DNA from: Escherichia phage SP27
Strand: one strand, 5' to 3'
Sequence record: LC494302.1
DNA: 64,000 nucleotides
The notes beneath the pieces are model-generated. The model did no database searches and was not told the DNA's origin. It saw only the letters and a list, made by a program, of their open reading frames with translations. This document shows, piece after piece, positions 9,396 to 9,477 of this stretch. Both the position numbers and the translations under genes were made by a program. Positions within the stretch are counted from its first letter, which is position 1. Each line of letters starts with the position of its first letter.

Positions 9396-9477
9396 CCGGG
9401 CGTATCTCAACGGTCTTCTAAATCGTCGTTAATCGAGTAACTGGAGTATGCAGGTTCGAGTCCTGTCGCCTGGGCCA
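9396..9477 (+). ncRNA. atypical tRNA-like RNA
   Basis: Acceptor CCGGGCG/CGCCTGG plus GCCA, T-arm GCAGG-TTCGAGT-CCTGT; no standard D-arm; possible CTTCTAA anticodon loop (Arg-UCU-like). Confidence 0.4.

Follow-up and report, generated by a model that had tools for sequence, protein, structure and literature searches.

Positions 9396-9477 of Escherichia phage SP27 DNA (record LC494302.1; the whole 64,000-nucleotide (nt) stretch analyzed here is referred to as the window) raise the question of what kind of RNA would combine the two ends of a tRNA with a middle part that does not fold as one. The first-pass annotation of this stretch had described an acceptor stem, a T-arm and an encoded CCA, all of which are indeed present in this interval, together with a possible stem-loop with the anticodon UCU placed unusually near the 5' end. 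Given the comparative evidence presented below, the element is probably a functional phage tRNA-Arg with the anticodon UCU, reading AGA, in which the core is topologically rearranged. Three features lie beyond the reach of a single sequence, namely the membership of the element in a large conserved phage family, the presence of a covarying long-range helix along with a relocated D-loop-like segment, and the position of the element in what is the sole tRNA-Arg slot.

Architecture and covariation of the element

Part by part, the 82-nt element (window positions 9396-9477) reads CCGGGCG UA U CUCA ACGGU CUUCUAA AUCGU CGUUAAU CGAG UAACUGGAGUAU GCAGG UUCGAGU CCUGU CGCCUGG G CCA; all the features described here are located on the plus strand. 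The 5' acceptor strand CCGGGCG (9396-9402) pairs with positions 9467-9473 in a helix of 7 base pairs (bp), one of which is G-U, and the 3' terminal segment (9467-9477) consists of the acceptor strand CGCCUGG, the discriminator G (9474) and the encoded CCA (9475-9477). The T-arm GCAGG-UUCGAGU-CCUGU (9450-9466) includes a 5-bp stem and a 7-nt loop with the UUCGA consensus (T54, Psi55, C56, R57, A58). The interval between the acceptor strand and the T-arm amounts to 47 nt (9403-9449) and begins with the connector U8-A9-U10 (9403-9405), which is invariant in all 54 distinct sequences of the alignment analyzed below. The connector is followed by the 5' strand of the long-range helix, here denoted helix X, which consists of CUC plus A (9406-9409) and occupies the place where the 5' strand of the D-stem usually lies. 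The anticodon arm (9410-9426; stem ACGGU/AUCGU, loop CUUCUAA, anticodon UCU at 9417-9419) starts 7 nt past the acceptor stem, and only 5 nt separate A9 from the anticodon stem, so that there is no D-arm hairpin with a 3-4 bp stem and a 7-11 nt loop. Downstream of the anticodon arm come the 7-nt linker CGUUAAU (9427-9433; family consensus C-R-U-Y-A-A-N), which makes up the 3' side of an asymmetric internal loop, the 3' strand of helix X, C plus GAG (9434-9437), and the single strand UAACUGGAGUAU (9438-9449), in which all but one of the positions are invariant and which contains the D-loop-like AAYUGGA and then a variable-loop-like GUAU that runs into the T stem.

Standard gene finders either pass over this element or accept it marginally. 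ARAGORN calls six ordinary tRNAs in the window but yields no tRNA call for the element, and accordingly no standard cloverleaf (the outcome that the first-pass annotation had set against its own description), in the default, low-threshold or mitochondrial mode. The Rfam tRNA model (RF00005) matches positions 9396-9474 with 29.3 bits, compared to the gathering score of 29 (E = 0.048 for the whole window), and the alignment reaches the cutoff only with the D-arm deleted and 20 nt inserted in the variable region. Thus, the earlier observation that a standard D-arm is missing holds. No dedicated family for the rearranged element exists in Rfam 15. Folding of the single sequence is uninformative either way (z = -0.38 relative to shuffles, with a minimum free energy structure that breaks the T-arm). 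Given the marginal Rfam score, the silence of ARAGORN and the shuffle-level folding, the element taken alone could pass for a broken tRNA. A decaying tRNA pseudogene that originated by deletion of the D-arm would account for the ARAGORN rejection and the threshold Rfam score as well as for the broken acceptor strand in one related copy, that of phage fENko-Kae01; this possibility can be assessed by covariation, given that a pseudogene would not covary.

The covariation alignment consists of 54 distinct sequences. The filter by which these sequences were collected demanded pairing of the acceptor, anticodon and T stems, and the collecting regular expression fixed TA at columns 8-9, T at column 10, T33 and a purine at position 37, leaving C35 free; helix X was outside the selection. 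In the proposed structure, 94.5% of the cells are paired, versus 65% in shuffles and 34-47% in slid controls, and 18 of the 21 pairs show double (compensatory) changes. The fraction of paired cells is 99.2% for the acceptor helix, 94.4% for the anticodon stem and 98.9% for the T stem, with double changes in all 7 acceptor pairs and all 5 anticodon stem pairs; UUCGA of the T-loop shows no variation in the alignment. The candidate UCU stem-loop near the 5' end is therefore the real anticodon arm: it covaries in the 54 sequences, its loop is invariant and its anticodons are always those of arginine. The architecture is retained in at least 54 distinct sequences across unrelated lineages, with compensatory changes in every helix; on these grounds, the pseudogene reading is rejected, and the probability that we leave to it is negligible.

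The three pairs of helix X formed by columns 11-13 with 42-40 are Watson-Crick in 54 of the 54 sequences and occur in 15 distinct variants, including CUC/GAG, CGC/GCG, CAG/CUG, CGG/CCG, CAU/AUG, CGU/ACG, CAC/GUG, CUU/AAG and UCC/GGA, with 1, 21 and 9 double changes for columns 11, 12 and 13, respectively. None of 10,000 shuffles reached the observed pairing (none had more than 32 complementary sequences), and the mutual information of columns 12 and 13 peaks at their proposed partners, columns 41 and 40. Because helix X played no part in the selection of the sequences, its pairing is an unbiased test. A fourth layer of this helix (14.39) is A.C or C.A in 40 of the 54 sequences and a standard pair (Watson-Crick or G-U) in 13, which suggests a real, roughly isosteric pair. 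In a search of the alignment for tertiary covariation beyond the helices, only this layer stands out; pairing of linker position 33 with column 46 was not supported by the covariation search. RNAalifold independently recovered the acceptor, anticodon and T arms and missed helix X, so that helix X rests on covariation rather than on energy.

The same columns bear on the reading of the linker. In GenBank, the copy of phage 121Q is annotated as tRNA-Leu(taa) and that of phage 7t3 as tRNA-TERM, and if GUUAAUC were the anticodon loop, the element would be a tRNA-Leu(UAA) or an ochre suppressor; the U/C-A-A of the linker would give the Leu anticodons UAA or CAA. However, the stem that would close such a loop (columns 28-32 with 40-44) is paired in only 38.9% of the cells, one of its pairs is absent from all the sequences, and covariation is essentially lacking; the columns with which 40-42 do covary are 11-13, and position 37 of the putative loop is a pyrimidine in 41 of the 54 sequences. 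Judging by the pair counts for this stem, the Leu or suppressor assignment is rejected and has next to no probability. In the linker, C, U, A and A are invariant, and this invariance was free of any constraint from the motif or the filter.

In the secondary structure that emerges from the covariation, the anticodon stem-loop is nested inside helix X, forming one long arm with a 0 x 7 nt internal loop, and is followed by UAAYUGGAGUAU and a normal T-arm. The AAYUGGA that follows helix X matches the D-loop sequence A14 R15 Y16 Y17 G18 G19 A20, and phage slurp01 has the 7-mer AAUUGGA as the D-loop of its canonical tRNA-Arg(UCU); we infer the numbered tRNA positions of the relocated AAYUGGA from sequence. 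With this numbering, A14 would contact U8, the Levitt pair would be formed by A15 and the U just ahead of the T stem, G18 and G19 would contact Psi55 and C56 of the UUCGA T-loop, and the same segment would also provide A20. Helix X, along with the U10.U43 and A.C layers, may stand in for the D-stem stack. The five stacked layers (U10.U43, three Watson-Crick pairs and A.C) would equal the four pairs of the canonical D-stem plus the 26.44 layer, and given this equivalence, it is plausible that an L-shape of normal length is kept.

The phage family and its probable arginine identity

A BLAST search with the 82 nt retrieved 269 phage records, of which 260 cover at least 80% of the query, with identities of 82-100%. 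The carriers belong to at least 10 unrelated lineages and include Asteriusvirus, Felixounavirus (FelixO1 among them), Sugarlandvirus, Mydovirus/Vequintavirinae, Justusliebigvirus (phi92), Kolesnikvirus, 7t3-like jumbo phages, a Vibrio phage, Streptomyces phages and Bas93. A scan of IMG/VR with a 16-nt motif detected 98 loci, most of them family members, and about 75 viral metagenome contigs carry close homologues. The same motif matched 89 times in 185,579 bacterial and archaeal species genomes; only 4 of these matches are members, all on short contigs of metagenome-assembled genomes, and 3 of the 4, which have several tRNA genes nearby, are probably of phage origin. The rearranged element has no match in 5,426 complete E. 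coli genomes. With these counts, a bacterial origin of the family is rejected.

The family covariance model, built from the 54 distinct members, yields bimodal scores, 82-100 bits for members and at most 40 bits for ordinary tRNAs, with two divergent members at 53-55 bits; in the window, it has one match only (92.7 bits). One of the divergent copies (viral contig locus L075, 13348-13426) has the same topology with a shorter helix X, a 5-nt linker and a longer, more D-loop-like UAAUUGGAUAGAACAU, and the other, from the Vibrio phage (L008, 2500-2583), has the same topology with helix X CCC/GGG and a longer linker. Given that these copies share the topology at such scores, the exact motif probably captured only part of the family. 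At most of the examined loci, the element is part of a tRNA cluster and has the orientation of the tRNAs around it; the copies in 7t3, fENko-Kae01 and Bas93 stand alone among protein-coding genes. The annotation of family members varies: they are annotated as tRNA-OTHER, tRNA-TERM, tRNA-Leu(taa), tRNA-Val(aac) or Und, overlapped by an open reading frame (ORF), or not annotated at all. In the copy of the Klebsiella phage fENko-Kae01 (L012, 2500-2577), the 3' acceptor strand is disrupted (CGCCATCG), so this copy is probably a pseudogene; the copy of the Salmonella phage 7t3 (L015, 2499-2577) is intact and otherwise near-identical to it.

All family anticodons belong to arginine: among the 54 aligned sequences, UCU is present in 50, including that of the window, CCU in 2, UCG in 1 and ACG in 1. 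All 54 sequences have C at position 35, and at position 36, 52 have U and 2 have G; U33 and A37 are invariant. The discriminator, G in the window, is a purine in 51 of 54 (G in 26, A in 25, U in 2 and C in 1). An A directly follows the GG of AAYUGGA in all members, the divergent Vibrio and L075 copies included. The identity set of bacterial tRNA-Arg consists of A/G73, A20, C35 and U/G36, with A20 being the main determinant for the arginyl-tRNA synthetase (ArgRS) of E. coli (PMC9976931, Table 1). The family nucleotides match this set, with the A after GG corresponding to a putative A20 by its position in the sequence only.

The codon usage and tRNA repertoires of the carriers agree with an AGA decoder. 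In the window, AGA accounts for 26% of the Arg codons. The complete genome of PBECO4, in which the element is identical to that of the window, has 6 ARAGORN tRNAs, none of them tRNA-Arg, and AGA makes up 24.7% of its Arg codons. The complete genome of FelixO1 has 25 tRNAs, including Arg(ACG) and no canonical UCU, and AGA is its most used Arg codon (398 of 988, 40%). In 83 family loci, a canonical Arg(ACG) co-occurs with the member 20 times and a genuine canonical Arg(UCU) twice; of the six 'Arg(tct)' calls that ARAGORN makes in these loci, the other four are mis-bounded calls of the member itself. These four calls, 91-98 nt in length, were rejected as canonical genes, given that ARAGORN made each of them by borrowing 5' flank. 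At locus L075, the canonical Arg tRNAs have the anticodons ACG and CCG, whereas CCU and UCU are supplied by two decoders of the rearranged type. Encoded CCA is present in members only where the neighboring canonical tRNAs encode CCA (18 of 18 loci) and is absent where the neighbors lack it (6 of 6).

The tRNA-Arg slot, alternative roles and neighboring genes

The window is of the 121Q/PBECO4-like (Asteriusvirus) jumbo coliphage type and is collinear with the minus strand of PBECO4. In slurp01, G17 and JP4, the slot of the element is occupied by a canonical 77-nt tRNA-Arg(UCU), and the identity of the flanks of the two alleles extends to 2 nt short of the 5' end and resumes at the discriminator. 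The canonical allele was found in 10 Asteriusvirus records, 100% identical to one another, and the rearranged allele in at least 21, with no accession in both listings. The gene for a canonical tRNA-Ser(UGA) (9302-9391, plus strand; detected by ARAGORN, 60.1 bits with Rfam) is located 4 nt upstream of the element. Its anticodon stem (arm at about 9327-9347) is ACGGU/ACCGU here and CUUGU/ACAAG in slurp01-type genomes, a fully compensated difference, and this tRNA-Ser allele co-segregates with the rearranged Arg allele. The co-segregation of the Ser and Arg alleles suggests one recombination tract or local gene conversion. A 21-nt CAACGGUCUUnnnAAACCGUCG of the tRNA-Ser is, aside from the anticodon, common to it and the adjoining rearranged tRNA-Arg of 121Q.

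The element could be a working tRNA that is charged with a different amino acid or causes recoding or frameshifting at AGA/AGG, with a body orthogonal to the host ArgRS. Along these lines, the true D-loop context of A20, the strongest determinant for the E. coli ArgRS, is missing, and AGA and AGG are the classic hungry codons. However, the four family anticodons are all arginine anticodons, C35, U/G36, R73 and the A after GG are retained, and sister genomes, in which the DNA encoding the proteins is about 95-98% identical, have a canonical tRNA-Arg(UCU) interchangeably with the element; furthermore, the annotations of the complete FelixO1 and PBECO4 records include no dedicated synthetase. With anticodons for arginine only and a canonical tRNA-Arg as the alternative allele, charging with another amino acid is unlikely, and the probability of this group of readings appears to be quite low.

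A somewhat greater, although still small, probability attaches to a role outside translation, whereby the RNA would mimic tRNA-Arg as a decoy or sponge for an anticodon nuclease (of the colicin D type), a modification enzyme or ArgRS, thus protecting or manipulating the tRNA pool. The conservation of the anticodon loop, T-loop and acceptor stem in an otherwise abnormal body would fit a decoy, as would the presence of polynucleotide kinase in PBECO4 and FelixO1 and of RNA ligase and tRNA nucleotidyltransferase in PBECO4, and the canonical Arg(UCU) beside the member at two loci; furthermore, phage tRNAs are known to counter tRNA-cleaving defences (PMC10264068, PMC12445682, PMC11555353). On the other side, the element replaces the only tRNA-Arg gene of Asteriusvirus genomes, is the sole RNA with a UCU anticodon in FelixO1, where AGA is the commonest Arg codon, and complements with its anticodons the canonical Arg sets of L075 and L057, and a decoy has no need to retain the discriminator purine, CCA and the full set of elbow nucleotides. 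The slot replacement, the status of sole decoder and the complementary sets of anticodons are thus less easily reconciled with a decoy than with a tRNA-Arg.

Several points weigh against an AGA-decoding tRNA-Arg. The support for it is comparative throughout. In the metagenome (IMG/VR) copies, the invariance of TAA, TGGAGTAT and GGTTCGA was imposed by the search motif and the filter; the BLAST-derived copies, which were not so selected, have TAT at columns 8-10 and the same TAA/TGGAGTAT region sequence. Thermodynamic folding fails to predict helix X, which comprises only 3 Watson-Crick pairs and one A.C layer. The ArgRS determinant A20, normally located in a true D-loop, is relocated here. At the L059 and L102 loci, a canonical tRNA-Arg(UCU) lies beside the member, so the two forms are not strictly exclusive, and nine members lack an encoded CCA despite having CCA-encoding neighbors. 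Finally, an engineered tRNA without a D-arm was unstable in E. coli until PNPase was mutated (PMC11551756).

Under the tRNA-Arg scenario, a promoter at about 9264-9291 would drive transcription of the gene along with the tRNA-Ser upstream of it, the transcript would be processed by RNase P and 3' trimming to the encoded CCA, and the host ArgRS would charge the RNA via C35, U36, the A after GG and G73. Delivery by EF-Tu would then allow decoding of the frequent AGA codons of the phage, which the rare tRNA-Arg(UCU) of the host would serve poorly. Co-transcription of the tRNA-Ser(UGA) and the rearranged tRNA-Arg is probable. The promoter-like site (9264-9291, plus strand) consists of GGGACA, a 16-nt spacer and a TG-extended TATAAT, with 10 of 12 matches in a consensus scan plus the TG; the count of promoter-like sites in the tRNA-Ser/tRNA-Arg region is no higher than in shuffles. 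The TGTGATATAAT box is kept in 121Q and slurp01 and is found directly upstream of the stand-alone 7t3 and fENko-Kae01 copies. As for the later steps, EF-Tu and the ribosomes of E. coli accept a tRNA without a D-arm with no adaptation (PMC11551756).

Why a phage tRNA would be rearranged in this manner is a separate question, for which we would guess, in the first place, that the tRNA evades some host or phage factor by which canonical tRNA bodies are recognized. More specifically, the rearranged core might be an anti-defence feature, such that ArgRS, EF-Tu and the ribosome still accept the tRNA while tRNA-targeting nucleases no longer recognize or cut it; we consider this tentatively, as a possibility that is more doubtful than not. 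Candidates for such nucleases are effectors of host immunity, colicin D-like toxins and degraders of host tRNA encoded by the phage itself, all of which would read the canonical geometry of the D-arm, the variable loop or the anticodon stem. An arms-race polymorphism would be compatible with the precise exchange of the two alleles, canonical and rearranged, in a single Asteriusvirus slot. Escape of phage tRNAs from tRNA-cleaving defences via changes in the tRNA body has been described, e.g., for tRNA-Thr versus P2-OLD (PMC12445682), and an anticodon-loop hypothesis has been proposed for such escape (PMC10264068).

Other features of these loci are recorded here as separate observations. In PBECO4 (NC_027364.1), the tRNA nucleotidyltransferase, polynucleotide kinase and RNA ligase genes are located at 27486-28598, 82276-83208 and 84032-85165, and in FelixO1 (NC_005282.1), the polynucleotide kinase gene is located at 4108-4803; these are the enzyme types that T4 uses in repairing nuclease-cut tRNA. 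Downstream of the slot, the window contains tandem small ORFs of about 165 nt (9504-9668 and from 9666 onward) with near-identical starts (ATGACGCATGAAGAATGGATGAA... and ATGACACATGAAGAGTGGATGAA...), and relatives have two or three such paralogous hypothetical proteins annotated in a row at this place. Further downstream, ARAGORN detects a tRNA-Ser with the anticodon ACU (11128-11219), which is kept in slurp01 and G17; the same gene has GCU in PBECO4, and JP4 has one GCU and one ACU copy. An A34 tRNA other than Arg(ACG) is unusual in bacteria, and AGU is the commonest Ser codon in the window (26.8 per 1000). Viral contigs also contain another tRNA-like element, of 64 nt (L028, 1336-1399, and also in L076, L078, L079, L098 and L109), with the acceptor TACTCTA/TAGAGTA, a normal T-arm, a D-arm-like hairpin and CUCC-GAUU-GGAG in place of the 7-nt anticodon loop. 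In the tRNA clusters of phi92, Mydo and Erwinia Ep030, ARAGORN reports 'tRNA-???' with two-base anticodons (L006, 3133-3208; L007, 2063-2137; L009, 525-597), and the phi92 record annotates several 'hypothetical tRNA' features, so these clusters may encode further non-standard tRNAs.

Relation to known tRNAs and implications

The closest functional relative of the rearranged element is the ordinary tRNA-Arg(UCU), and the closest structural precedent is the mitochondrial tRNA-Ser(AGY/N) that lacks the D-arm. The canonical tRNA-Arg(UCU) of slurp01, G17 and JP4 shares with the rearranged form the slot, the flanks, UCU in a 7-nt loop with U33 and A37, the AAUUGGA D-loop motif, the T-loop consensus, a purine discriminator and the encoded CCA. 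A D-arm hairpin located 5' of the anticodon arm, a variable loop of 5 nt and recognition by ARAGORN set the canonical form apart from the rearranged one. In the latter, the strand after A9 pairs 3' of the anticodon arm, the D-loop-like sequence comes after the 3' strand of helix X, and a 7-nt linker is added.

Metazoan mitochondrial tRNA-Ser(AGY/AGN) likewise has no D-arm hairpin and shows a three-way layout of acceptor, anticodon and T arms (PMC4013460, PMC7609411); that these tRNAs and the phage family both read AGN codons is a coincidence. In the mitochondrial forms, the elbow contacts are lost, the shape is Y-like or flexible, and the mitochondrial factors have co-evolved (PMC11551756). 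The phage family, in contrast, keeps the G18-G19-like and T-loop nucleotides, has a covarying helix that would restore the stack length and must use the ordinary bacterial ArgRS, EF-Tu and ribosomes. The combination that typifies the mitochondrial forms, D-arm loss plus degenerate elbow nucleotides, is not found in the element, where GG and UUCGA are conserved. A bacterial cytosolic RNA without a D-arm hairpin is mini HisT, which is tolerated by EF-Tu and the ribosome (Edelmann et al. 2024, PMC11551756). In this synthetic RNA, used by evolved E. coli, a connector of 4 nt substitutes for the D-arm; its stability depends on mutation of PNPase, degradation by which is the main limit on its use (PMC11551756). 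Unlike mini HisT, the phage family is natural, widespread and under purifying selection, with a replacement helix and a relocated D-loop. The tRNA-Sec, tRNA-Pyl and allo-tRNAs are also natural, depart from the standard 7/5 cloverleaf and, like the phage family, are often missed or mislabelled (PMC7609411), but their four arms come in the usual order and vary in stem length, whereas the phage family has its very strands in a different order.

All known bacterial tRNAs are considered to be cloverleaves, with natural arm-less tRNAs found only in mitochondria (Edelmann et al. 2024, PMC11551756). A full-text literature search, the coverage of which is incomplete so that a prior report is possible, found no published description of the rearranged architecture. 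The element at 9396-9477 is a tRNA, probably a tRNA-Arg, that lacks the defining D-arm feature of the cloverleaf. If the current view in the field still holds, this family is a natural counter-example that has gone unrecognized in hundreds of sequenced phages, among them the model phages FelixO1, phi92 and 121Q.

For the phages themselves, this implies that tRNA inventories are systematically undercounted or mislabelled; PBECO4-type and FelixO1-type phages seem to be without an AGA decoder only because gene finders miss the element. The family also offers a direct test of what ArgRS, RNase P, EF-Tu and the ribosome need in a tRNA core, as well as a natural scaffold for the engineering of orthogonal tRNAs. 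If the rearrangement protects against tRNA-cleaving immunity, it would represent a new class of counter-defence and, should this anti-defence explanation be true, the family would provide the first case of a natural tRNA other than a cloverleaf shown to function in translation in the bacterial cytosol.

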